A stretch of DNA of 64,000 bases from Squalus acanthias (GCA_030390025.1 CM059431.1:106704001-106768000); one strand, 5' to 3'; shown: positions 2,910 to 28,009, numbered from the stretch's first letter. Notes: generated by a model not told the origin, from the sequence alone. Made by a program: numbers and translations.

Positions 2910-4623
2910 GGCCAGAATTTTGCGAGGGTCAGCGGGCACAATTGGTGGTGGGTCGGGTGAGAAAGTGTTTTTTTTTCACAGCGGGTCGGGATTCCACTGT
3001 GAACCAGCCACCACGCGCCTTTCCCAATGTCGGGTCTGTCAGCACTGAGCAGACCCGACACACAGCGGCAGGGGACCCAATTCAGATAATTAGTGGCTTG
3101 TTTAGAGCCACTTAAGAATGATTTTCAGCTTTCCTTTTGCATTTGACAGCTCATCCATGGGGTCCACACTGGTCGTGGACCATGTCTCTGAAGCTGAGGC
3201 AGGAGTTCAGTGGCCATTGAATCAGCTGTTGAGTTGACAGCTTCAAATGTAATGTAAAAGCTCCCACCTTACAGAGATATCTTCCCTCAGCCACAAACTG
3301 TTGCTCAGTCCATTTCCAGCACAGATTCACCATGCTGCAAGTCTTTACATAAGTCTCCATCCAGTCTCACCTCATCACCTCTCTCACCATTGACAGATCG
3401 CTTCTGTCATCTCTACTTCACCTGCCATCTATTCCATCAGCATGGGTGTCCTTTATACTCTCTCACCTTGGTCCTCAGAATCCCACCACCATCAGCCCCA
3501 ACACCAGCAGCACCAGGCACACCTGCAGCACCAACAACAATACCAAACTTCTGCGCAATCAACTGATGCTGCACAGGACACAGGGCATCAACACCCGACC
3601 ACATTGATGCCTGGGAGGCCAGGGATGGCCTCACCATGGCCAGATTTACTTCACTTGATGCTGTACATCCTGGCTGCCACATGATGCACCAGGTTGGCAC
3701 CACCCCACACCAACACCCTAAAGCATCCCTACAATGCCCAAGCAATTCCTTTCACACTCATCACCATTGCGGGGGGTACCGTTATGTCTCACCATTCACT
3801 GCAACTCAATAAGCCACTTCCAAAGGTGCACATGAATCTATCCAAGAATGCAAAGTGTTGAAAATAAAGGTTTCAATGCTTGACAGCATATTAACAGAAA
3901 CTTTACATGAGCATTGCGTAAAACATCCAAGTGCCTACCCTTGTGTGTTGTTAGTTGGTATGATTGCACTAGGATGAGGGTGAGTGTGTGGGGTGGCTAA
4001 TGAGATGGGGATGTGATAATGTAGATAGAGAGGGATGGGTGGAGGTGCAAGGCAAGTTGGTGTGAGTAAGGATGTGCAGGAGTAGGGTAGGGAAGGCAGA
4101 GTGATGGGGATCTGCTGAGAGGCACAGCAGGATGAGGTTCAGTGTGGCTTTGTACTAACGTTTCGTGATCGTCTGAGATCATTGAAAGGTTTGTGGCACT
4201 GCACCCAGATTCTCCTGACCACATCCCTGCTTGTGCCCTCCTCTGCAATGTGCAACCAGGCTGTGTTAATCTCCTGGGGAGGTCTCTTCCACCCATATGT
4301 GCTGTGGAGGGAGTCTTGGGAGAACCTGGGTGCAGCCCTGTGCCTTTGTGCAGTCATTGTCAGTGTTTGCAGCACCTCAATGCGGTAGAACACTGACAGC
4401 ACAAATGTCAAAATAAATTTGGACATGGTCCCTTTAAGGAAACCGGCTTTAAGGACGTCACCAGACCCGCTTCCTCTAATTGGCCGGGAAACATGCTGGG
4501 CGGGCTTAACAAGCCCAATCTCGGGAAATTCACTTCACAGAGTGGGATGGAGCCAGCAGCAGGGTCGGGACACACCACCAACATTGCTCGCCATGGATCC
4601 ACCGAGGTGAACAAAATCGCAGC
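2910..4623. mobile_element. PIF/Harbinger-type DNA transposon, deleted and decayed, inserted in the PLE
   Basis: Splits the PLE sequence gtcac|ccaatctgc. Has degenerate inverted ends (ggccagaattttg / caaaatcgcagc), a subterminal inverted match (2933-2952 vs 4571-4590) and an internal Myb/SANT-like remnant. Confidence 0.7.
4160..4360 (-). pseudogene. Harbinger Myb/SANT-like (trihelix) DNA-binding protein remnant
   Basis: RAAPRFS...KRPP...AWLHIAEEGTSRDVVRRIWVQCHKPFNDLRRS fits the W..IA.....R...QC.K.F.DL pattern of Harbinger Myb-like (NAIF1-type) proteins. Confidence 0.7.
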
Positions 4624-6449
4624 TCCAATCTGCATTGGTCCCCCCAGTGTAGAGGAGACCGCATCGTGAGCAGCGAATACAGTATACTAAATTGAAAGAA
4701 GTACAAGTAAATTGCGGTTTCACCTGGAAGGAGTGTTTGGGGCCCTGATAGTGGGAAGGGAGGAGGTAAAAGGGTAGGTGTTGCATCTCCTGCACTTGCA
4801 TGGGAAGGTGCCGGGCGAAGGGGAAGGGGTGTTGGAGGTGATTGAGGAGTGGACCAGGGTGTCGTGGAGGGAGCGGTCCCTTCGGAATGCTGAAAGAGGA
4901 GGTGAGGGGAAGATTTGTTTGGTGGTGGGATCACACTGGAGGTGGCGGAATGGCGGAGGATGATCCTTCGAATGTGGAGGCTGTTGGGGTGAATGGTGAG
5001 GACAAGGGGAACCCTATTGTGGTTCTGGGAGGGAGAGGAAAGGGTGAGGGCTGAAGTGCGGGAAATGGAACGGAAACGGTCGAGGGCCCTGTCAACCACG
5101 GTGGAGGGGAATCCTCGGTTGAGAAAAAGGAAGACATATTGGAAACACTGGTATGGAACGTGGCATTGTCAGAACAGATGCGACGCAGATGGAGAAACTG
5201 GGAGAATGGAACAGAGTCTGTACAAGAAGCCGCGTGGGAGGAAGTGTAGTCAAGGTAGCTGTGGGAGTTAGTGGGCTTATAGTGGATGTTGGTCGATAGC
5301 CTATTCCCAGAAATGGAGACAGAGAAGTCGAGGAAGGGAAGGAATGAGTCAGCAGTGGACCATGTGAAGGTGAGGGAAGGGTAGAAATTAGAAGCAAAGT
5401 GAATAAAATTTTCCAGTTCAGGGCGAGAGCAGGAAAGCACACCGAAAAAGAGGTGAGGGAGGCGACCTGAGTAGGACTGGACCAAAGAATGTTCCACATA
5501 TTGCACAAAAAAGGCAGGAATAGCTAGGACCCATGCAGCTTCCTATAGCAACACCTTTTATTTGGAGGAAGTGAGCGGAGTTAAAGGAGAAGTTGTTCAA
5601 TGTGAGAACAAATTCAGCCAGGCGGAGGAGGGTGGTGGTGGATGGGGACTGTTTAGGCCTCTGTTCAAGGAAGAAGTGGAGTGCGCTCAGGCCATCCTGT
5701 TGGGGGATGGAGGTGTAGAGGGATTGGGCATCTATGGTGTAAAGGAAATGGTTAGGGCCAGGAAACTGGAAACTGTTGAAGTGGCGGACGGCGTCAGTAG
5801 AGTCGCGGATGTAGCTGGGAAAACACTGGACAAGGGGAGAACAAAATAGAGTTGAGATAGGAAGAAATCAGTTCCATGGGGCAAGAACAGGCTGAAACGA
5901 TGGGTCTATCAGGGCAGTCCTGTTTGTGGATCTTGGGGAGGAGATAGAAATTGGAGTACGGGGTTGGGGGACTATGAGGTTGGCGGCCATGGAGGGAAGA
6001 TCTCCAGAGGAGATGAGGTCAGTGAAAGTCTTGGAAACGGTGGCTTGATGTTTGGTCATGGGTTCATGGTCCAGGGGGAGGTAGGAGGAGGTGTCGGAGA
6101 GTTGGCGTTCAGCCTCCACACGGTAGAGGTCAGTTCGCCAAACAACAACAGCGCCACCCTTGCCAGCAGGTTTAATGACAGTGTTAGGGTTGGATCTGAG
6201 AGAACGGAGTGCTGCAAGTTCAGAAGGAGGTAGGTTAGAGTCAGTGAGGGGAGCAGAGAAATTGAGATGGCCGATGTCATGCCGACAGTTCCCAATGAAA
6301 CGATCTAGAGAGGGTAAGAGGCCAGAGGGAGGGGCCCAGGTGGAACGAGAATTCTGAAGGTGAGACAGAACTCCTGGCCAAAGAAGTGGGCACGGAGGCG
6401 AAAGCGACGAAAGAAGAGCTCAGCGTCGTGCCGAGCTCAAAATTCATCG

Positions 6450-6588
6450 AGGTGTTCCCCGTAATTCTATTTTATGTGCGCAGCCCCTTTAAAGGGCTGC
6501 GTGGCCCATTTACAGTTTTGCGCAAAAATTTAACATTGAAAAAGCTGCTCCTGGGCTGCGCGGGACCGGCAGAGAGGTGGGAATGTTG
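6450..6588. mobile_element. ~140-bp MITE-like insertion in the PLE ORF
   Basis: Interrupts the PLE peptide FIPLRPH|NEF.ARHDAELF. Ends gtgttccc...gggaatgttg are loosely inverted, and there is an internal palindrome gcagcccctttaaagggctgc (6480-6500). Confidence 0.55.
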
Positions 6589-7337
6589 GTGGGGGCGTAA
6601 GGGGATGAAGCTGGGGCCTTTGCTGAGGACTGATCGCTCGGGGTCAGAGGGGGGAAGGTCAGAGGGGAATAGTGAAAACACCACCAGGGGGGAGACTGGA
6701 AGAAGGGATGGGGTCAGAGGAAACTGAAGGGGTAGAAGGTCCCGGAGCGGGGTTGGTTAGGGGTTGATTTTAGCTCAGGTCCTGCTGGGGAGAAGAAGAA
6801 GCCACGAAAGGTAAGATTTACACTTTCCTTCACGGGGGTGCAGGAGGAGCAAGATTGCTTCTTCAGACCCTGCACAAGGACATTGTAGACCTCCCTTTGC
6901 TCGCGGAATCCCTGAACTTTTTCTGCCACCATTCCCCTTAGTGATACATTACCTATTTGTATAAGTGGCTCTGTCTGAAATTCAAGCACTTTTACTAAAT
7001 TGAAAAACACAGCCATGCACTATGTTTTCATGTGACTTCATATATTAAAGTCTGTTCAGCTTCCTGAAAAGGCTTTGAGCTATCAGTAAATTGTGTACAT
7101 CTTTTTAGATTTAGCGAAGCATTTTAATACAGGGTGACCACATTTTCTAAACCGAATCCCGTGACACACGAGGTGGGGGTGCAGCAAAGTAGCCAGGATG
7201 GAAAATATAGGTTGCAAAAGTTTTTAGCAGCCTTTGTTTTAACAGTTGCACATATACACCACGAATGCAAAACAAACGTGCATATAATTATTGATGTGAC
7301 GCCACAGTATTGAAGCACATTCAGACACCCGAGCCCA

Positions 7338-8140
7338 CCCCAGTGACTGAGGTCACACCTGACCCCTCCCCCCCAGTGACTGAGGTCACACCTGACCCCT
7401 CCCCCCCAGTGACTGAGGTCACACCTGATCCCTCCCCCCCAGTGACTGAAATCACACCTGATCCCTCCCCCCCAGTGACTGAGCTCACACCTGACCCCTC
7501 CCCCCCGTGACTGAGGTCACACCTGACCCCTCCCACCCAGTGACTGAGGTCACACCTGACCCCTCCCCCCCAGTGACTGAGGTCACACCTGACCCCGCCC
7601 CAACTGTGAGTGTGGTCACACCTGACCCCTCCCCCCCAGTGACTGAGGTCACACCTGACCCCTCCCCCCCAGTGACTGATGTCACACCTGATCCCTCCCC
7701 CCCCAGTGATTGAGGTCACACCTGACCCCTCCCCCACAGTGACTGAGGTCACACCTGACCCCTCCACCCCAGTGACTGAGGTCACAGCTGACCCCTCCCC
7801 CCCAGTGACTGAGGTCACACCTGACCTCTCCCCCCCAGTGACTGAGGTCACACCTGACCCCTCCCCCCCAGTGACTGAGGTCACACCTGACCCCTCCCAC
7901 CCCAACAGTGACTGAGGTCACACCTGACCACTCCCCAAGTGGGACTGAGGTCACACCTGACCCCTCCCCCCCCAGTGACTGAGGTCACACCTGACCCCTC
8001 CCCCCCAGTGACTGAGGTCACACCTGACCCCTCCCCCCCAGTGACTGAGGTCACACCTGACCACTCCCCAAGTGGGACTGAGGTCACACCTGACCCCTCC
8101 CCCCCAGTGACTGAGGTCACACTTCACCCCCCCACCCACA
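7338..8140. repeat. 33-bp minisatellite (cagtgactgaggtcacacctgacccctcccccc), ~24 copies
   Basis: Directly visible tandem array with a period of 33 (7341, 7374, ...). Confidence 0.97.
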
Positions 8141-8410
8141 GTGGCTAGGATTGGCCAGCTCTCGCCCCCCCTTCCCCCGGTGACCGGGTCCTCCCTAGCA
8201 GCCTCTCACTCACCCGCTCCGGTTGCCGTGTTCACAGGCACTTCCAACACCGACAATCCAGCAGCATGAGCCGGGCCGGAATCTCAAAAACAGCAACCGG
8301 CACGTGCACAGAAAGAGCGCCCAGTCGCACATGCGCGGTGAGTCACTCTGGCCATCGTACAAGTTGTTGTTTAATTTAGTCTTAGAGACACAAACTGACA
8401 GCTGAGGGGT

Positions 8411-11400
8411 GGGGGGGACAATCACTGCCCGGGGGGACACTCACTGCCCAGGGGTACACTCACTGCCCAGGGGTACACTCACTGCCCAGGGGTACACTCA
8501 CTGCCCGGGGGGTACACTCACTGCCCAGGGGTACACTCACTGCCCAGGGGTACACTCACTGCCCGGGGGGTACACTCACTGTCCAGGGGGTACAGTCACT
8601 GCCCAGGGGGTACACTCACTGCCAGGGGGTACACTCACTGCCCAGGGGTACACTCACTGCCCAGGGGTACACTCACTGCCCAGGGGTACACTCACTGCCC
8701 GGGGGGTACACTCACTGCCCAGGGGTACACTCACTGCCCAGGGGTACACTCACTGCCCAGGGGTACACTCACTGCCCGGGGGGTACACTCACTGCCCAGG
8801 GGTACACTCACTGCCCGGGGGGACACTCACTGCCCAGTGGGGTACACTCACTTCCTGGGGGGTACACTCACTGCCCGGGGGTACACTCACTGCCCGGGGG
8901 GTACACTCACTGCCCGGGGGTACACTCACTGCCCGGGGGGTACACTAACTGCCCAGGGGGTATACTCACTGTCCGGGGGTACACTCACTGCCCAGGGGGT
9001 ACACTCACTGTCTGGGGGTACACTCACTGCCCAGGGGTACACTCACTGCCCAGGGGGTACAGTCACTGCCAGGGGGTACACTCACTGCCCAGGGGGTACA
9101 CTCACTGTCCAGGGGGTACACTCACTGCCAGGGGGTACACTCACTGCCCAGGAGTACACTCACTGCCAGGGGGTACACTCACTGCCCAGGGGTACACTCA
9201 CTGCCATGGGGGTACACTCACTGTCCAGGGGGTACAGTCACTGCCCAGGGGGTACACTCACTGCCAGGGGGTACACTCACTGCCCAGGGGGTACAGTCAC
9301 TGCCCAGGGGGTACAATCACTGCCCGGGGGGACACTCACTGCCCAGGGGGTACACTCACTGCCCAGGGGTACACTCACTGCCCAGGGGGTACAGTCACTG
9401 CCAGGGGGTACACTCACTGCCCAGGGGGTACAGTCACTGCCCAGGGGGTACACTCACTGCCAGGGGGTACACTCACTGCCCAGGAGTACACTCACTGCCA
9501 GGGGGTACACTCACTGCCCAGGGGTACACTCACTGCCCAGGGGGTACACTCACTGTCCAGGGGGTACAGTCACTGCCCAGGGGGTACACTCACTGCCAGG
9601 GGGTACACTCACTGCCCAGGGGGTACAGTCACTGCCCAGGGGGTACACTCACTGCCCAGGGGGTACAGTCACTGCCCAGGGGGTACAATCACTGCCCGGG
9701 GGGACACTCACTGCCCAGGGGGTACACTCACTGCCAGGGGGTACACTCACTGCCCAGGGGGTACACTCACTGCCCAGGAGTACACTCACTGCCCAGGGGT
9801 ACACTCACTGTCCGGGGGGTACGCTCACTGCCCAGTGGGGTACACTCACTGCCCGGGGGTACACTCACTGCCATGGGGGTACACTCACTGCCCAGGGGGT
9901 ACACTCACTGCCCGGGGGTACACTCACTGCCCAGGGGGTACACTCACTGTCCAGGGGGTACAGTCACTGCCCAGGGGGTACACTCACTGCCAGGGGGTAC
10001 ACTCACTGCCCAGGGGTACACTCACTGCCCAGGGGGTACACTCACTGCCCAGGAGTACACTCACTGCCCGGGGGTACACTCACTGCCCAGGGGGTACACT
10101 CACTGCCCAGGAGTACACTCACTGTCCGGGGGGTACACTCACTGCCCAGGGGTACACTCACTGCCCGGGGGTACACTCACTGCCCGGGGGGTACACTCAC
10201 TGCCCAGGGGTACACTCACTGCCCAGGGGGTACACTCACTGCCCGGGGGTACACTCACTGCCATGGGGGTACACTCACTGCCCAGGGGTACACTCACTGC
10301 CCAGGGGTACACTCACTGCCCAGGGGGTATACTCACTGTCCGGGGGTACACTAACTGTCCGGGGGTACACTCACTGCCCAGGGGTACACTCACTGCCCAG
10401 TGGGTACACTCACTGCCATGGGGGTACACTCACTGCCCAGGGGGTATACTCACTGTCCGGGGGTACACTAACTGTCCGGGGGTACACTCACTGCCCAGGG
10501 GTACACTCACTGCCCGGGGGTACACTCACTGCCCAGGGGTACACTCACTGCCCAGGTGTACACTCACTGCCCAGTGGGGTACACTCACTGCCCAGGGGTA
10601 CACTCACTGCCCAGGGGGTACACTCACTGCCCGGGGGTACACTCACTGCCCAGGGGTACACTCACTGCCCAGGGGTACACTCACTGCCCAGTGGGGTACA
10701 CTCACTGCCCAGGGGTACACTCACTGCCCAGTGGGGTACACTCACTGCCCAGTGGGGTACACTCACTGCCCAGGGGGTACACTCACTGTCCAGGGGTACA
10801 CTCACTGCCCAGTGGGGTACACTCACTGCCCAGGGGGTACACTCACTGTCCGGGGGTACACTAACTGTCCGGGGGTACACTCACTGCCCAGGGGTACACT
10901 CACTGCCCAGGGGGTACACTCACTGCCCAGGGGTACACTCACTGCCCAGTGGGGTACACTCACTGCCCAGGGGGTACACTCACTGTCCGGGGGTACACTA
11001 ACTGTCCGGGGGTACACTCACTGCCATGGGGGTACACTCACTGCCCAGTGGGGTACACTCACTGCCATGGGGGTACACTCACTGCCATGGGGGTACACTC
11101 ACTGCCCAGGGGTACACTCACTGCCCAGTGGGGTACACTCACTGCCATGGGGGTACACTCACTGCCCAGGGGTACACTCACTGCCCAGTGGGGTACACTC
11201 ACTGCCATGGGGGTACACTCACTGCCCAGTGGGGTACACTCACTGCCATGGGGGTACACTCACTGCCATGGGGGTACACTCACTGCCATGGGGGTACACT
11301 CACTGCCCAGGGGTACACTCACTGCCCAGGGGTACATTCACTGTCCAGGGGTACACTCACTGCCCAGGGGTACACTCACTGTCCGGGGGGTACACTCACT

Positions 11401-13119
11401 GCCCAGGGGTACACTCACTGCCCGGGGGTACACTCACTGCCCAGGGGTACACTCACTGCCCAGGGGGTACACTCACTGCCCAGGGGTACACTCACTGCCC
11501 AGGGGTACACTCACTGCCCAGTGGGGTACACTCACTGCCCAGGGGTACACTCACTGCCCAGTGGGGTACACTCACTGCCCAGGGGTACACTCACTGCCCA
11601 GTGGGGTACACTCACTGCCCAGGGGGTACACTCACTGTCCGGGGGTACACTAACTGTCCGGGGGTACACTCACTGCCCAGGGGTACACTCACTGCCCGGG
11701 GGTACACTCACTGCCCAGGGGTACACTCACTGCCCAGTGGGGTACACTCACTGCCATGGGGGTACACTCACTGCCCAGGGGTACACTCACTGCCCAGTGG
11801 GGTACACTCACTGCCATGGGGGTACACTCACTGCCCAGTGGGGTACACTCACTGCCATGGGGGTACACTCACTGCCATGGGGGTACACTCACTGCCATGG
11901 GGGTACACTCACTGCCCAGGGGTACACTCACTGCCCAGGGGTACATTCACTGTCCAGGGGTACACTCACTGCCCAGGGGTACACTCACTGCCCAGGGGTA
12001 CACTCACTGCCCAGGGGGTACACTCACTGCCCGGGGGTACACTCACTGCCCAGGGGTACACTCACTGCCCAGGGGTACACTCACTGCCCAGGGGTACACT
12101 CACTGCCCAGGGGTACACTCACTGCCCAGGGGGTACACTCACTGCCCAGGGGTACACTCATTGCCCAGGGGGTACACTCATTGCCCAGGGGGTACACTGA
12201 TTGCCCAGGGGGACACTCACTGCCCAGGGGGTACACTCACTGCCCAGGGGTACACTCAAAGCCCGGGGGGTACACTCATTGCCCAGTGGGTATACTCACT
12301 GTCCGGGGGGTACACTCATTGCCCAGGGGGTATACTCACTGCCCAGGGGTACACTCATTGTCCGGGGGGTACACTCACTGCCCGGGGGTACACTCACTGC
12401 CCAGGAGGTACACTCACTGCCCAGGGGGTACACTCACTGCCCAGGGGTACACTCATTGTCCGGGGGGTACACTCACTGCCCAGGAGTACACTCACTGCCC
12501 AGGGGATACACTCACTGCCCTGGAGGTACACTCACTGCCCGGGGGTACACTCACTGCCCAGGGGGTACACTCACTGCCCGGGGGGTACACTCACTGCCCG
12601 GGGGGTACACTCACTGCCCGGGGGGGTACACTCACTGCCCGGGGGTACACTCACTGTCCGGGGGTACACTCACTGTCCGGGGGGTACACTCACTGCCCGG
12701 GGGGTACACTCACTGCCCGGGGGGTACACTCACTGCCCGGGGGGGTACACTCACTGCCCGGGGGTACACTCACTGTCCGGGGGTACACTCACTGTCCGGG
12801 GGGTACACCCAGTGCCCGGGGGTACTCTCACTGCCCAGGGGTACACTCACTGGCCGGGGGTACACTCACTGCCCAGGGGTACACTCACTGTCCGGGGGGT
12901 ACACCCAGTGCCCAGGGGGTTACACTCACTGTCCGGGGGGTACACCCAGTGCCCAGGGGGTTACACTCACTTCATGGGGGTACACTCATGCCTGGGGGTA
13001 CACTCACTGTCCAGGGGTACACTCACTGCCCTGGGGTACACTCACTGCCCAGGGGTACACTCACTGCCTCGGGGGTACACTCACTGCCCAGGGGTACACT
13101 CACTGCCCAGGGGTACACT
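8411..13119. repeat. 19-21-bp minisatellite (ggggtacactcactgccca), ~240 copies
   Basis: Directly visible tandem array with a variable G-run. Variant units (ccatggggg, ccagtgggg, ctaactgtcc) occur in clusters. Confidence 0.98.
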
Positions 13120-13744
13120 TCGGGGAAGATTTTTGTAAACCGGGGACACCTCCGGGGACGATTTTTGCCCGGGGACACAGTAGCTCATTCGAGGACTGTC
13201 CCCGGAAAAAGGGGACGGATGGTCACCCTGCTTTAATACTTTTTTTTTTGATTGATGACTGTAATATCTTACCTACCACGAGACCCCCCCCCCCCCACAA
13301 CACCCCCCCCCGAAACCCACTTCCCCACACTTACCTGAGTGGCTGCCTATTTTCTGGAGGCTGGGAGCCTCTTCTCGCCCATTCCGGGCATGGAGTGGAC
13401 CAGTGGCTTCTTACTGAGGCCTGGGAGTTAAACAACACGGGTCTGATCTCCTTTGCAACCATCCATCCGCCCAAAACCTGCCCAGAGTTAAAATCCCGAG
13501 CAATGGCCTTATTTAACTGAAGGCACCAGAAATCAATCATTTTATGTAATTTTCTCAGACAGCTGCCTAATATCCCTTTCACAGTAGCAAATGGAAGTTG
13601 GATTTCTATTGAAATAGAGCTTTCCTTTAACACAATCAATGACGTTAATCTTAACCAAGAACTCTGATAATAAATCAATATAAACTCCATGCATGTTGTT
13701 GTATGGTTATATTTACTGAGCTAATGTGAGTGAGGCAGACAATC

Positions 13745-14430
13745 TCTTACCTGCACTGGTTAGGTTGAACTTGCTGCAGACTCGGGCTTCCTTCGAAACT
13801 TCGTGTGTTGGTGCACGTGTCCAGGCACGCACGCGCTGCGTTATGTTGCGTGCACACCTGCGCGCGTGAAGCGGTCCTCCTGGGTTTTACAAGAAACATC
13901 CCACATTCCCCACCACCCACGTCCTCGCCAATCTTACTTGGCTCCCCAATGCATGGATTTCGGATTCCTCCCCGTCTCCGCAAACTCCTTCAGCCCCGTG
14001 CTCCAGCACGCGCCCGTTATCATTGGTTGGGCGAGGTGCCCGTCCCGCCTCCACCGGCGGCTCCTCCACTTTAAAAAAAGATCAAAATCTCGGCCGGGGC
14101 GAAAGGGTAGGTCCTGGGAGGGGGGGTGGGGGGGTGAAGCGGCAACGGGGGAGGGGAGGGGAGAGGGGTTGGGGGGAGACCAATCGGGATAAAGCAGAGT
14201 TGGGGGTGCACTCCTGATCCTTTTGGGAACGTATTAAAAATGTTATTGAAAAAAAACCTTTTGGTGATGGCCACCGTTTAGGCTGCAGTGGCCGCTGAAG
14301 AAACCAGAGCGGAGCAGACCCAGTCGCATTTCCAGTGAGGTAGAGGGGGCCACATGTTTTAGACGGGTGGAAGGAGGCCCAATATCTAACCCGTGATCCA
14401 CTGCAAACCGCAGCAGCGGTCGATGCAATC
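13745..14430. promoter_or_regulatory. CpG-rich, promoter-like island with a candidate first-exon donor on the minus strand
   Basis: Non-repetitive and CpG-dense. CCAAT/ATTGG at 13928, 13946, 14022 and 14180; E-box at 13814; GC-rich tracts; consensus minus-strand donor CAG|GTAAGAG at 13751/13750. Confidence 0.6.
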
Positions 14431-14479
14431 ACGCACACAGACAAGAAGGACTACAGCTTCAAGCCCCACAAGGATTGTT

Positions 14480-16044
14480 GTAATAAAAACAGAAAATGCT
14501 GGAAATACACTCAGCAGGTCAGGCAGCATCTGTGGAGAGAGAGAAACAGAGTTAGCGTTTCAGGTCCATGACCCTTCGTCAGAACTGGAAAAAGTTAGAG
14601 ATGTAACAGATTTTTTAAGCAAGTGCAGAGGCAGGGAAAGGTGGGAGGGGAGGATAGAACAAAAGGGAAGGTCTGCGATAGCGTGGAAGGCAGGAGAGGT
14701 TAAATGACAACAGGGATGATGGTACAAAGTAAAAGGAGATGGTAATGGGACAAGCAAATAAACAGTAGATGAGGCCAGAAGAGGTGTAAATGGGAATGGC
14801 AGAATCATCAACACGTGAAAAAATAGGGGCAGAGGTTATAGTCTGAAATTGTTGAACTCAATGTTGAATCCAGAAGGCTGTAAAGTGCCTAATCGAAAGA
14901 TGAGGTGCTGTTCCTCGAGCTTACGTTGAGCTTCATTGGAACAGTGTAAGAGGCCGAGGACAGAGAGGTCAGAGTGGGAGTGGAGTGCAGAATTAAAGTG
15001 ACAGGTGACCGGAAGCTCGGGGTCATGCTTACGGACTGAACGGAGGTGTTCCGCAAAGCAGTCACCCACTCTGCATTTGGTCTCCCCAATTTAGAGGAGA
15101 CTGCATCGTGAGCAGCGAATACAGTATACTAAATTGCAAGAAGTACAAGTAAATCGCTGTTTCACCTGGAAGGAGTGTTTGGGGCCTTGGACAGTGGGAA
15201 GGGAGGAGGTAAAAGGGCAGGTGTTGCATCTCCTGCGCTTACACCAGAAGGTGCCGTGGGAAGGGGAAGGGGTGTTGGCAGTGATTGAGGTGTGGACCAG
15301 GGTGTCGCGGAGGGAGCGGTCCCTTCGGAATGCTGAAAGGGGAGAGTAGGGGAAAATGTGTTTGGTGGTGGGATCACGCTGGAGGTGACGGAAGTGGTGA
15401 AGGATGATCCATTGACTGTGAAGGCTGGTGGGGTGAAAGGTGAGGACAAGGGGAACCCTATCGTGCTTCTGGGAGGGAGGGGAAGGGGTGAGAGCAGAAG
15501 TGCGGGAAATGGAACGGACATGGTCGAGGGCCATGTCAACCACGGTAGAGGGGAAGCCTCGGTTGAGGAAAAAGGAAGACATATCGGATGCACTAGTATG
15601 GAAGGTGGCATCATCAGAGCAGATGCGGCTGAGACGGAGAAACTGGGAGAATGGAATAGAGTCCTTACAGGAAGCGGGGTGGGAGGAAGTGTAGTCCAGG
15701 TAGCTGTGGGAGTCAGTGGGCTTATAGTAGATGTTTGTCTATAGCCTATCCTCAGAAATGGAGGCAGAGAAGTCGAGGAAGGGAAGTGAGGATTCGGAGA
15801 TGAAGCATGTGAAGGTGAGGGATGGGTGGAAATTGGAAGCAAAGTGAATGAAGTTTTTTAGTTCAGGGCGAGAGCATGAAATGGCACCGATACAGTCATC
15901 AGTGTACCAGGAAAAGACGTGAGGGAGGGGACATGAGTAGGACTGGAACAAAGAATGTTCCACGTATCCCACAAAAAGGCAGGCATAGCTAGGGCCCATG
16001 TGGGTTCCCATAGCCACACCTTTAATTTGGAGGAAGTGAGTGGA
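14480..16044 (-). mobile_element. Penelope-like element, 5'-truncated and decayed
   Basis: Peptides FLQIKGVAMGTHMGPSYACLF, YTDD (RT), CTSCNLVYCIRCSRC and FAEHLRSV...RLGTLQPSGFNIEF (GIY-YIG C-terminus), plus the terminal repeat with an HHR motif. Confidence 0.93.
14550..14586 (-). ncRNA. Hammerhead ribozyme motif, mutated copy
   Basis: Minus strand reads AGUU-CUGACGA-agggucauggaccu-GAAA-CG-CU-AACU; the conserved U16.1 position is a C. Confidence 0.55.
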
Positions 16045-16189
16045 TTGTTGTAAGTCAGGCAGGTGTAATAGAGGTAATTGAACAGCTATACAGCAAGGAG
16101 AAATGGCCAATAGTCAAATATAATAAGTGGCAAAAATAGACATTTCCCAGTTGTAGACTAGTCAAGCAAAATAGGGGTACACTGAAATA

Positions 16190-21221: not shown

Positions 21222-21650
21222 CACAACAACAACAACTTGTATTTATATAGCGCCTTTAACGTAGTAAAACATCCCAAGGCGCTTCACAGGAGTATTATAA
21301 GACAAAAAAATTTGACACTGAGCCACAAAGGGAGAAATTAGGGCAGATGACTAAAAACTTGGTCAAAGAGGTAGGTTTTAATGAGCATCTTAAAGGAGGA
21401 GAGAGAGGCGGAGAGGTTTAGGGAGGGAATTCCAGAGCTTAGGGCCTAGGCAACAGAAGGCACGGCCACCAATGGTTGAGCAATTATAATCAAGGCTGCT
21501 CAAGAGGGCAGAATTAGAGGAGCGCAGATATCTCGGGAGGAGGGGGGGGGGTGTTGTGGGACTGGAGGAGATTACAGAGATAGGGAGGGGCGAGGCCATG
21601 GAGGGATTTGAAACCATTGATGAGAATTTTGAAATCGAGGTGTTGCTTAT
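21222..21650 (-). mobile_element. L2 LINE 3' end
   Basis: Peptide HLDFKILI..FKSLHGLAPPYLCNLL..LRSS..TIGGRAFCCLGPKLWNSLP with a (ttg)n tail. Confidence 0.9.
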
Positions 21651-23610: not shown

Positions 23611-26562
23611 TCATGTCCAAATTCCTGCCCGCTCCCCGTAACCCTTAATGCCCTTTACTTCTAGGAAACTGTCTATTTCTGTTTTAAATTTAATTAATGT
23701 TGTAGCTTCTACAGCTTTTTGTGGCAGCATATTCCATGGACCTACCACCCTCTGAGTGAAGTAGTTCCTCCTCATCTCAGTTTTGAAAGAGCAGCCCCTT
23801 ATTCTAAGACTATGTCCCCTAGTTCTCGTCTCACCCGTCATCGGGAACATCCTCCCCGCATCCACCCGATCCAACCCCTTCACAATCTTATATGTTTCAA
23901 TAAGATCGCCTCTCATTCTTCTGAACTCCAATGAGTAGAGTCCCAATCTACCCAACCTCTCCTCATATGACCACCCCCTCATCCCCGGGATTAACCGAGT
24001 GAACCTTTTTTGCACTGCCTCGAGAGCAAGGATGTCTTTCCTTAAGTAAGGACACCAAAACTGTATGCAGTATTCCAGGTGCGGTCTCACCAATACCTTG
24101 TACAACTGAAGCAATACCTCCCTATTTTTATATTCTATCCCCCTAGCAATGAAAGCCAACATTCCATTTGCCTTCTTAATCACTTGCTGCACCTGCATAC
24201 TAACCTTTTGAGTTTCGTGCACCAGGACCCCCAGATCCCTTTGCACTTCAGTACTCTCCAGTTTCTTGCCATTAAGATAATAAATTGCTCTAGGATTTTT
24301 CCTGCCAAAGTGCATCACCTCACACTTTCCAGTGTTGTATTCCATCTGCCAAATCTCTGCCCACTTACTTAGCCTGTCTATGTCCCCTTGCAGGTTTTTT
24401 ATGTCCTCCTCACTCACTACTTTCCCTCCCATCTTTGTATCATCTGCAAATTTTGATATGTTACACTTGGTCCTTTCCTCCAAATCGTTAATATAGATTG
24501 TGAAGAGTTGGGGACCCAGCACTGACCCCTGTGGAACACCACTAGTTACTGATTGCCAGTCTGAGAATGAACCATTTATCCCAACTCTTTGCTTTCTGTT
24601 AGATAGCCAATCCTCTATCCATGCCAGAATATTACCCCCAATCCCGTGATTTTTTACCTTAAGCAATAATCTTTTGTGTGGCACCTTGTCAAATGCCTTT
24701 TGGAAGTCTAAATACACTACGTCCACTGGTTCCCCTTTATCCACTCTATATGTTACTTCCTCAAAGAACTCCAGCAAATTTGTCAAACATGACTTCCCCT
24801 TCGTAAAACCATGCTGACTTTGTCCTATTAAATTATGATTATCCAAATGTCCTGTTACTGTTTCCTTAATAATGGACTCCAAAATTTTACCTACCACAGA
24901 TGTTAGGCTAACCGGTCTATAGTTACCAGCCTTCTGTCTACTGCCCTTTTTAAATAAGGGTGTTACATTAGCAGTTTTCCAGTCTGCCGGGACCTTAGCG
25001 GAATCCAGGGAGTTTTGAAAAATTATTACCAATGCATCTACAATCTCTACCGCCACTTCCTTCAAGACTCTAGGATGTAAGCCATCAGGTCCAGGTGATT
25101 TATCCGCCTTGAGTCCCATTATTTTACCGAGTACCACTTCCTTAGTGATTTTGATCGTGTTTAGCTCCTCTCCCCCTATAGCCCCCTGTTTGTCCAGTGT
25201 TGGGATATTCTTAGTGTCCTCTACTGTAAAGACTGATACAAAATATTCATTCAGTGTTTTTGCCATCTCCATATTTCCCACCATTAATTTCCCGGTCTCA
25301 TCCTCTAAGGGACCAACATTTACTTTAGCCACCCTTTTTCTTTTTATATAACTATAAAAACTCTTACTATCTGTTTTTATATTTTTTGCTAATTTACTTT
25401 CATAATCTATCTTCCCTTTCTTAATCAATCTTTTTGTTATTTTTTGCTGCCTTTTAAAGTTTTCCCAATCCTCTGTCCTCCCATTAGATTTCGCTACCTT
25501 ATATGCCCTTGTTTTTAGTCGAATACTATCCTTAATTTCTTTACTTAGCCACGGATGACTGTCCTTTCTTTTACACCCTTTTCTTTTCAGTGGAATATAT
25601 TTTTTTTGGAAGTTGTAAAATAACTCCTTGAATGTACACCACTGATCATGTGTCGTCTTACCCTTTAATCTATTTTCCCAATCCACTCTACTCAATTCCG
25701 CTCGCATACCTTCATAGTCTCCTTTATTCAAGCTTAGCACGCTTGTTTGAGATCCAACCTTCTCACCCTCTAATTGAATATGGAATTCAACCATGTTATG
25801 GTCACTCATTCCAAGGGGATCCTTTACTAGGACATTTTTAATTAATCCTGTCTCGTTACACAGGACCAGATCTAAGGTTGCTTGCCCCCTGGTCGGTTCA
25901 GTTACATACTGCTCAAGAAACCCATCCCTAATACACTCAATGAACTCATCCTCAAGGCAGCCCTGCCCCATTTGATTTGTCCAATTAATGTGATAGTTAA
26001 AATCCCCCATAATTATAGATGTTCCCTTATTACATGCCTCAACTATTTCCTGATTGATACTCCGTCCAATAGAGTTGCAACTGTTCGGAGGCCTATAGAC
26101 TACGCCCACTAATGTTTTTTTCCCCTTATTATTCCTTATCTCCACCCAAACTGTTTCATTATCATGATTTTTTGACCCAATATCATTACTCTGTATTACA
26201 GTGATTCCTTCCTTTATTAACATAGCCACCCCACCTCCCCTTCCTTCCTGCCTGTCCTTCCTGATCGTTAAATAACCTGGTATGTTTAATTCCCAGGCAT
26301 TGTCACCCTGCAGCCATGTTTCTGTAATGGCCACAATATCATAACCATATGTAGTTATTTGTGCCATTAACTCGTCTATTTTGTTACGAATGCTACGTGC
26401 ATTCAGATAGAGAACTTTCAAATATGCTTTGTGGCACTTAGTTCCTGCTTTTTCACTTTTTACCAGTTTACCTTTTACTCCACACACTCTGTCCCTTCCT
26501 GCCACGCTCTGATTTGTGATTCCCCTACTGCTACCTATGTCTATGACCCTCTCTGTTGTCAT
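23611..26562 (-). CDS. CR1 ORF2: apurinic endonuclease + reverse transcriptase (983 aa)
   Basis: APE motifs YLNARS, AITETWL, VYRPP, MGDFN, LDLVL, SDH. RT motifs KSPGPDG, NYRPVSLTS, QHGF, YLDFQKAFDKV, GVPQGSVLGP, FADD. No stops or frameshifts. Confidence 0.97.
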   Translation of the reverse strand: MTTERVIDIGSSRGITNQSVAGRDRVCGVKGKLVKSEKAGTKCHKAYLKVLYLNARSIRNKIDELMAQITTYGYDIVAITETWLQGDNAWELNIPGYLTIRKDRQEGRGGGVAMLIKEGITVIQSNDIGSKNHDNETVWVEIRNNKGKKTLVGVVYRPPNSCNSIGRSINQEIVEACNKGTSIIMGDFNYHINWTNQMGQGCLEDEFIECIRDGFLEQYVTEPTRGQATLDLVLCNETGLIKNVLVKDPLGMSDHNMVEFHIQLEGEKVGSQTSVLSLNKGDYEGMRAELSRVDWENRLKGKTTHDQWCTFKELFYNFQKKYIPLKRKGCKRKDSHPWLSKEIKDSIRLKTRAYKVAKSNGRTEDWENFKRQQKITKRLIKKGKIDYESKLAKNIKTDSKSFYSYIKRKRVAKVNVGPLEDETGKLMVGNMEMAKTLNEYFVSVFTVEDTKNIPTLDKQGAIGGEELNTIKITKEVVLGKIMGLKADKSPGPDGLHPRVLKEVAVEIVDALVIIFQNSLDSAKVPADWKTANVTPLFKKGSRQKAGNYRPVSLTSVVGKILESIIKETVTGHLDNHNLIGQSQHGFTKGKSCLTNLLEFFEEVTYRVDKGEPVDVVYLDFQKAFDKVPHKRLLLKVKNHGIGGNILAWIEDWLSNRKQRVGINGSFSDWQSVTSGVPQGSVLGPQLFTIYINDLEERTKCNISKFADDTKMGGKVVSEEDIKNLQGDIDRLSKWAEIWQMEYNTGKCEVMHFGRKNPRAIYYLNGKKLESTEVQRDLGVLVHETQKVSMQVQQVIKKANGMLAFIARGIEYKNREVLLQLYKVLVRPHLEYCIQFWCPYLRKDILALEAVQKRFTRLIPGMRGWSYEERLGRLGLYSLEFRRMRGDLIETYKIVKGLDRVDAGRMFPMTGETRTRGHSLRIRGCSFKTEMRRNYFTQRVVGPWNMLPQKAVEATTLIKFKTEIDSFLEVKGIKGYGERAGIWT

Positions 26563-26600
26563 TTTTATTTTTTGCTCTCTTGAAACCTCCCCCCCACTAA

Positions 26601-27557
26601 TTAGTTTAAAGCCCTCTCCACAGCCCTAGTTATTCGATTCGCCAGGACACTAGTCCCAGCACTGGCCAAGTGAAGTCCGTCCCAACGGAACAGCTCTCTC
26701 CTGCCCCAGTACTGGTGCCAGTGTCCCAAGAAGCAAAACCCATTTTTCCCACACCAGTCTTTGAGCCACGCATTCAACTCCCTGATTTTATTTACCCTAG
26801 CCAAATTTGCTCGTGGCTCAGGTAGTAATCCAGAGATTATTACCCTCGAGGTTCTGCTTTTTAATTTGGCCCCTAGCTGCTCAAACTCCCTCAGCAGAAC
26901 CTCTTTCCTTGTCCTATCTATGTCATTGGTACCAACATGGACCACGACAACTGGATCCTCCCCCTCCCACTCCAAGTTTCTCTCCAGCCCAGAGGAGATG
27001 TCCTTAACCCTGGCACCGGGCAGGCAACACAGCCTTCGGGACTCTCGCTCTTGGCTGCAAAGAACCCTATCTATCCCCCTAATGATACTATCCCCTACCA
27101 CTACAACATTTCTTTTTACTCCCCCCACTTGAATGGCCCCCCTTACCACGGTGCTGTGGCCAGGTTGCTCATCCTCCCTGCAGTCCCCGCTCCTATCCAC
27201 ACAGGGAGTAAGAGCCTCGAACCTGTTGGACAAGAGCAAGGGCTGCGGCTCCTCCAACACTACCTCCTGGATCCCTGTACCTGCCTCACTCGTAGTCACA
27301 CCTTCCTGTCCCTGACCACGGGCTACTTCTGAATTAGTTACTCTAATTGGTGTGACTACCTCCTGAAACACGGAGTCCAGGTAACTCTCCCCCTCCCTGA
27401 TGTGTCGCAGTGTTTGAAGCTCGGACTCCAGCTCATCAACACGGAGCCGGAGTTCCTCGAGCAGCCAACACTTACTGCAAATGTGTTCACCGTGAACATC
27501 AATGGTGTCCACCAGCTCCCACATATTGCAGCAGTAACACATCACCTGCTCTCCCAT
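26601..27557 (-). CDS. CR1 ORF1: zinc-finger-like N-terminus, coiled coil and SGNH/GDSL esterase domain (318 aa)
   Basis: CYCC...CSKC motif, leucine heptads, and esterase blocks VVVVGDSIIRG, LPGA, VHVGTND and DGLHL. Confidence 0.93.
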   Translation of the reverse strand: MGEQVMCYCCNMWELVDTIDVHGEHICSKCWLLEELRLRVDELESELQTLRHIREGESYLDSVFQEVVTPIRVTNSEVARGQGQEGVTTSEAGTGIQEVVLEEPQPLLLSNRFEALTPCVDRSGDCREDEQPGHSTVVRGAIQVGGVKRNVVVVGDSIIRGIDRVLCSQERESRRLCCLPGARVKDISSGLERNLEWEGEDPVVVVHVGTNDIDRTRKEVLLREFEQLGAKLKSRTSRVIISGLLPEPRANLARVNKIRELNAWLKDWCGKNGFCFLGHWHQYWGRRELFRWDGLHLASAGTSVLANRITRAVERALN

Positions 27558-28009
27558 TCTATGTAATTAATTAAAAATGTATTATTTATCCTTCAGTTAA
27601 TTTATGCCAGCAGTCTCTGCTACACCACAGATACCCGAGAAACAATAAAATTGAAGTTTTGTATAAAAAAAAAGAGAAATACTCACCAACCAATCACTTA
27701 CCTGCTTTCTGGTGACGTCACACTTCGATTATTTTTTACCTCTCTCCTGCTCTCGGCTTGGTGAAAGCCTACCTGGTCGCTGCCGCCTTTTACCGCCGCC
27801 GCCTCGCCGCTGTTGCTCCACCCAGGTCCGCCGCCTCTATAAATGTAGCAGCAACCCCAGTATAGATTCAGTTGATTCCACCAAGTTTGACCAAAGACAA
27901 TGGTCTTGTGTTAACTCCAATCTAACACCAGGAGCTACAACAATACTCTAGTATCCAATGCAGGCCTTGATGTCACGTAACCATGTTGCATATCGACGCT
28001 GTGCTGTAC

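Follow-up and report, generated by a model that had tools for sequence, protein, structure and literature searches.

A 19-bp minisatellite beside the right end of a non-autonomous hAT-type transposon from Squalus acanthias and its likely origin in an end block

A gene-less element with two internal arrays

The window analyzed here, a stretch of 64,000 nucleotides from one strand of Squalus acanthias (GCA_030390025.1 CM059431.1:106704001-106768000; positions are counted from its first letter), harbors at 7130-13230 an element of 6101 bp which, judging from its sequence, is a gene-less, non-autonomous DNA transposon of the hAT type. Its interior holds a minisatellite of 19-bp units (8411-13119, plus strand), which a previous sequence-only reading had regarded as a runaway expansion of the transposon's subterminal motif, one that could titrate the transposase or alter the element's mobility. 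The reading that we favor, and consider probable, is that a family of such transposons bears the 19-mer as inherited, neutral internal cargo beside the right end, grown from an end block; we are more confident of one part of it, since an origin of the unit in the innermost right-end block is quite likely.

The element is bounded by terminal inverted repeats (TIRs) of 11 bp, of which the left, CAGGGTGACCA (7130-7140, plus strand), is the perfect inverse of the right (13220-13230, plus strand). Outside them lie 8-bp target-site duplications (TSDs), TTTTAATA at 7122-7129 and CTTTAATA at 13231-13238 (both on the plus strand), which share seven of eight letters and have TA at positions 4-5. Taken alone, an 11-bp TIR is modest, as a match of that length turns up in 85 of 2906 pairs of 300-bp background segments; the TIR core is found a single time on each strand of the whole window, and public contigs placed the right boundary at 13229-13230. 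No transposase open reading frame (ORF) was seen in 7130-13230, where the frames are translations of repeats or fall below 80 amino acids, and a search of 6500-14500 against Rfam gave no matches. Likewise, blastn with the left end, the spacer, the right end and both array units detected no second copy in the window outside the element. The delimitation of the element rests on the TIRs, the TSDs, the right boundary shared by contigs and the ORF check, and its features agree with those of hAT elements in the short TIR, the 8-bp TSD, the dispersed multi-copy occurrence with a fixed boundary and the presence, at the right end only, of subterminal motifs.

Inward from the left TIR, the element comprises the remaining unique left end (7141-7337), with a single two-mismatch motif site at 7158, a 33-bp minisatellite of 24 copies (7338-8143), a unique, CpG-rich spacer (8144-8410; CpG observed/expected ratio 0.72), the 19-bp minisatellite and the right subterminal region (13120-13219), in which CCGGGGAC lies at 13140, 13152 and 13169 and, inverted, at 13198. 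The unique parts measure 208 bp (left end), 267 bp (spacer) and 111 bp (right end), and their sum of 586 bp is the size of a miniature inverted-repeat transposable element (MITE), but with its arrays the 6101-bp element exceeds the strict MITE size, usually up to 600 bp (PMC3879986). As single-stranded DNA, the right end (13120-13230) folds better than 199 of 200 shuffles (z -2.56), because it contains both direct and inverted copies of the motif.

Tandem Repeats Finder placed the 19-bp array at 8412-13119 (period 19, 240.6 copies) and 241 unit cores could be parsed, which bears out the approximately 240 units reported previously. GGGGTACAC occurs in 201 of these cores and GGGTACA in 216, while the six GGGGACA units (8414, 8433, 8819, 9328, 9700 and 12209) carry G-runs of 5-7 and none of them equals the end motif. 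The GAC form had been noticed in the first two units; it is present there, at 8414 and 8433, but four further GAC units lie inside the array, and a polarity derived from the first two was accordingly rejected. The 44 unit variants are arranged in local blocks, and 293 bp are repeated exactly at 11089 and 11698 as a higher-order duplication, which together show turnover within the array. The CpG observed/expected ratio is 0.13, against 0.89 in the right end, and with 157 units in CA, 23 in TG and 60 in CG form, 180 of 240 are of the CpG-decay type. The CG-form units, which keep CCGGGG, are enriched beside the right end (18 among the last 30 units versus 42 among the other 210; Fisher p 1e-5, overstated since units are not independent). 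Elsewhere in the window, words of the 19-mer yield a single 9-letter match.

Other explanations of the array were tried and discarded. Expansion driven by hairpins (z +2.25, +1.88 and -0.86) or by G-quadruplexes (G4; 3% of windows over 1.2, background 2%) was not supported, nor did comparisons support kinship of the 19-mer with the 33-mer (p 0.12) or with the TIR (p 0.23). A coding role was likewise rejected, the long ORFs being the outcome of a unit that is poor in stops in all three plus frames.

Public contigs and the transposon family

Contigs from four of eight public runs, X1 and X6 (organism A), X5 (organism B) and X7 (organism C), were compared with the region 13075-13400 at a floor of 80% likeness, X1 being possibly the source sample and hence not independent. 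At the right end, the only end that this boundary concerns, 90 contigs of X1 and 58 of X6 exit the element at 13229 into unlike flanks (agreement 0.39 and 0.38). The flank consensus of both runs has TA at positions 4-5, and the letter following 13229 is mostly A, against G in the window. Words of the spacer were found in six of eight runs, from organisms A and B. The element is a member of a dispersed, multi-site family with a single fixed right boundary and a TA-centered 8-bp target.

Array units continue into the right end in X1 records 1-4, X6 records 17-20 and X5 record 13, with 13-26 other letters and 0-3 gaps; given the 13-26 differing letters, these pieces stem from other family copies, so that the internal array is common to several of them, and X5 record 13 extends the array-end junction to a second species. 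The window locus itself is represented by X1 record 6 and X6 record 22, and X1 records 7 and 8 together with X6 records 23 and 24, which start at 13119-13131, are uninformative or ambiguous (X1 record 8 and X6 record 24, both starting at 13131, leave 58 and 55 letters unaligned). In X7, cover was restricted to a poly-C tract of the flank and none fell on the element, which is no proof of absence; the 19-mer and right-end patterns also gave no matches in metagenome and viral contigs, collections that are not expected to include the host and are uninformative on distribution. In the right flank, at 13341-13345, the locus contigs of X1 and X6 hold approximately 18-19 extra letters relative to the window, which reflect either the other haplotype or an assembly difference.

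Contig depth amounted to 7.9 (X1) and 15.8 (X6) on single-copy flank, approximately 7400 and 6800 on the right end, and 528,000 and 1,088,000 on the 19-mer units. The raw ratios correspond to 939 and 432 ends and to about 67,000 and 69,000 units, orders of magnitude that lean upward, since depth of this kind does not measure copy number and is raised by short contigs that overlap. The unit depth divided by the end depth is 71, 160 and 31 (X1, X6 and X5), a rough measure of units per element which is of the same order as 241; because of these ratios, 241 units are not exceptional for the family. Both runs of organism A as well as organism B carry the same array in the same place, so that it is a family trait and the runaway expansion is not supported as a local event; a family-wide cargo fits better.

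The right-end motif and the origin of the unit

All six motif coordinates given by the sequence-only reading were correct. The motif cluster of the right end exceeds chance: GGGGAC occurs five times within 99 bp, a density equalled by none of 5000 dinucleotide shuffles; when the motif is not chosen in advance and the most repeated 6-mer or 7-mer is taken instead, 135 and 115 of 5000 shuffles equal the right end. CCGGGGAC is present four times in the 111-bp right end and absent from 27.8 kb of flank. The motif proposed for the left end at 7158 does exist, but as a lone two-mismatch match in 197 bp, near the background of 6 per kb. The majority letters of other copies, taken per site and unphased, restore the motif at 13121-13127 and 13189-13196 (by X1 depth, 13127 A>C in 65%, 13189 T>C in 98% and 13192 A>G in 95%), and the typical family right end comprises five direct motifs spaced 12-20 bp apart, plus one inverted and one partial. 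The right end is therefore a loose run of motif plus spacer, the spacer measuring 4-12 bp in the window copy. Over 13121-13230, the window copy departs from most of the others at no fewer than 11 sites and retains all eight CpGs, at which 2-22% C>T or G>A is seen among the others; it looks like a member of a small separate subfamily rather than an old decayed copy.

The array meets this run of motifs in a duplicated block of approximately 30 bp (13107-13167, plus strand), in which the last array unit and the adjoining 13121-13136 align with 13140-13167. The alignment of 13107-13136 with 13140-13167 scores 37, against a shuffle mean of 11 (p 2e-4), and this score was reached by none of 5000 background 33-mers. 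It is anchored by the unique halves (score 26), and it sets the last array unit in register with the motif block, of which the unit matches 11 of 12 letters given two single-base insertions; the unit part of the block alone gives p 3e-4 against shuffles and p 2e-4 against a GC-matched background. The derivation of the 19-mer from the subterminal motif, as claimed earlier, is probably right and now has positional support in the register of the last unit and the enrichment of CG forms near the end, but the dominant unit, taken alone, resembles the end no better than chance.

The second array offers a possible parallel. In the 33-bp array (7338-8143, 24.2 copies by Tandem Repeats Finder), 19 of 24 units contain GGTCACACCTG, which corresponds to the inner TIR plus a single inserted base. 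The 33-mer resembles the TIR with p 0.003 in 5000 shuffles of the unit, this being one comparison among about 15, a suggestive likeness that would mirror the one between 19-mer and motif. Within the 33-mer, the TIR-like stretch has the right-end orientation. Comparisons of the 33-mer with the right end, left end or spacer gave p 0.10-0.95. The unit also holds an internal GTGAC/GTCAC inverted repeat and is G4-prone on the minus strand (49%); a hairpin-driven expansion was not supported (z -0.45 and -0.04). Its length equals 11 codons, yet 4 of 23 units break it.

From these data we infer a history in which, long ago, the innermost motif-plus-spacer block of a master element would have gained two inserted bases, and the altered block would then have been tandemly duplicated, presumably when replication or gap repair slipped or switched template, and expanded. 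Arrays would subsequently lengthen and shorten in each copy via ordinary minisatellite turnover, for which blocks of variants and higher-order duplications are observed, and CpG decay would take the units further away from the motif. A transposase encoded elsewhere would mobilize the elements through the TIRs and the intact end motifs, while the array itself would be a neutral passenger and no functional binding platform. Tandem repeats are known to arise commonly from the repetitive non-coding portions of non-autonomous elements, their TIRs included (PMC9659126).

Several points weigh against this history. In a free alignment with the right end, the dominant T-unit stays at chance level (p 0.20 by unit shuffles and 0.076 by target shuffles), the rare G-unit giving a modest match (p 0.021 and 0.013, respectively); 10-12 of the 19 unit letters have a counterpart in the end, two insertions are required, and the limits of the duplicated block were picked post hoc. 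Besides the upward-leaning depths and the rough number of units per element, the piece-by-piece comparison covers 32 of 9377 contig pieces, and among the sequences read there was neither an empty site, nor a full second copy, nor an autonomous partner. Finally, the array may be useful, given that it has been kept in two subfamilies and two species.

The chance-level match of the T-unit would suit an alternative in which a GC-rich minisatellite of separate origin entered the master element and resembles the motif by chance, as G-run-rich words may do. The same holds for the seven unit letters without a counterpart in the end and for the array being devoid of perfect motifs (0 copies of CGGGGAC or CCGGGGAC, whereas the right end has four). 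We grant this unrelated origin a small chance, as the array stops exactly where the duplicated block predicts the motif and the unit matches there in 11 of 12 letters, the block likeness is kept, by eye, in the majority letters of other copies, and words of the 19-mer are missing from the rest of the window save for the one 9-letter match.

A further alternative, in which the 19-mer exists chiefly as a separate satellite at other places in the genome and is present in some family members only, is rather improbable. The unit depth does surpass that of the array-end junction 532, 1553 and 100 times; the junction depth, however, is lowered by the 80% floor, because the window copy differs from most at 11 or more sites there, and relative to the better-covered end the ratio is 31-160. 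X1 record 5 and X6 record 21, which match from 13110 to 13223, have 244 and 210 contiguous letters upstream of 13110 that do not align to units, and represent a candidate member lacking the array or having a heavily diverged one, in a data set whose contigs break within arrays; but among the top loose ends listed, none exits the end into non-array DNA at 13110-13130.

We doubt even more strongly that the array serves as near-cognate transposase sites, titrating the protein in trans or altering mobility in cis, as the sequence-only reading suggested. BED domains of hAT transposases bind short subterminal repeats cooperatively (PMC10368747), and titration by non-autonomous copies is an old proposal, which requires no array (PMC3878927); moreover, the array is retained family-wide and contains CCGGGG 59 times (12.5 per kb versus 0.3 in the flank). 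Nevertheless, if CCGGGGAC is taken as the putative transposase site, the array has no perfect motif, one one-mismatch site in 4709 bp (0.21 per kb versus 0.44 per kb in the flank) and 133 two-mismatch sites, the content of about 22 kb of flank (6.0 per kb). Enrichment over background was found for the CCGGGG half and the two-mismatch sites, and not for the end motif as such. The CpG form is gone from 180 of 240 units, and hundreds of family ends already supply perfect sites. The chromosome continues for at least 11.6 Mb before and at least 31.8 Mb after the window, DNA that would hold about 260,000 two-mismatch sites and thereby exceed all family arrays combined. In Hermes, an isolated site is no longer bound once AAGT becomes AAGC, binding depends on context, no BED domain attaches to one of the two ends, and the true BED site differed from the repeat first guessed from sequence (PMC10368747). 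Titration is thus unlikely, although a putative binding to the CCGGGG half would survive as a cis effect, with family-wide retention fitting plain inheritance equally well. It is just as improbable that both arrays are amplified altered recognition sequences (the 33-mer from the TIR with one inserted base, the 19-mer from the motif with two), kept in different subfamilies and species because low-affinity multivalent binding gathers oligomeric hAT transposase on these gene-less elements, so that array length tunes the mobilization of a parasite's parasite.

With inherited cargo grown from an end block as the preferred reading, the 19-mer would be a minisatellite that arose from the end sequence of a transposon and was spread by it, and whose junction still displays the step from motif to unit. 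The family would offer hundreds of loci for tracing how a single minisatellite arose, spread and underwent CpG decay in two species, and its description aids the annotation of an abundant repeat of up to about 7e4 unit equivalents (a raw, upper-leaning depth ratio). An effect of array length on mobilization would matter far more if true, but the present data make it unlikely.

Neighboring repeats and comparison with known systems

The transposon region is flanked on the minus strand by two broken copies of related retroelements (4139-6419 and 15091-16113), the frames of which share motifs; two pieces of them had no Pfam match, and both copies may be Penelope-like. At 23611-27566, also on the minus strand, there is an apparently intact long interspersed nuclear element, presumably CR1-like, with a 1004-amino-acid frame containing endonuclease and reverse transcriptase domains and an upstream frame of 321 amino acids with a GDSL esterase domain. 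A 14-bp satellite occupies 33989-62965 (27.6 kb, 1970 copies), begins within a short dispersed repeat that is also present at 21223-21279, and has shorter, oppositely oriented arrays of its unit on either side (15 and 85 copies); its CpG observed/expected ratio is 1.56, and 75% of its windows are G4-prone on the minus strand.

The ends of the element may resemble those of hAT-Blackjack and its non-autonomous members MER81/MER94. Ends of the hAT-Blackjack type presumably read (C/T)AGGGTGACC followed by GGGAC-rich motifs and a GGGAC/GTCCC palindrome, and the short human MER81/MER94 are not known to carry long arrays. PMC5753468, PMC12730594 and PMC9250109 give names but no end sequences.

Among the hAT features observed here are an 11-bp TIR starting with CAG/TAG and the cluster of subterminal motifs. 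The 8-bp TSD with TA at positions 4-5, together with the flank consensus of two runs, matches the Buster-type hAT target nnnTAnnn (PMC3517528), an agreement in consensus that would suit this subgroup and is no unique proof of it. As with the subterminal repeats of Hermes (PMC10368747), short motifs are clustered by the TIR, one palindromic pair is present and the two ends are asymmetric. Unlike the Hermes AAGT, the motif found here is GC-rich with a CpG, and its binding is putative; the array, in turn, differs from the Hermes repeats in lying more than 110 bp from the tip and in having no perfect motif.

A search of the open literature returned no paper that describes this family or reports a minisatellite built from a hAT subterminal motif, and Repbase or Dfam may already file the family. 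The kind of element is itself known, and this family is a further member of it: tandem-repeat-bearing non-autonomous DNA transposons include Xmix/Xstir and miDNA4 of Xenopus and Tetris TIR-220 of Drosophila virilis, listed in PMC9659126, as well as the bivalve DTC84 and pearl (PMC3879986), and satellites arising from TIRs or other repetitive parts of non-autonomous elements have been described in both sources. Like these elements, the present one has no coding capacity, short TIRs, a TSD and an internal array common to family members; in those elements the array copy number varies between members and, in some cases, the unit comes from the element's own repetitive ends. It departs from them in its hAT-type ends, in hundreds of units compared with about five in DTC84, and in the coexistence of two arrays (33 and 19 bp) in one element, where one unit is probably traceable to the subterminal motif block and the second may go back to the TIR.

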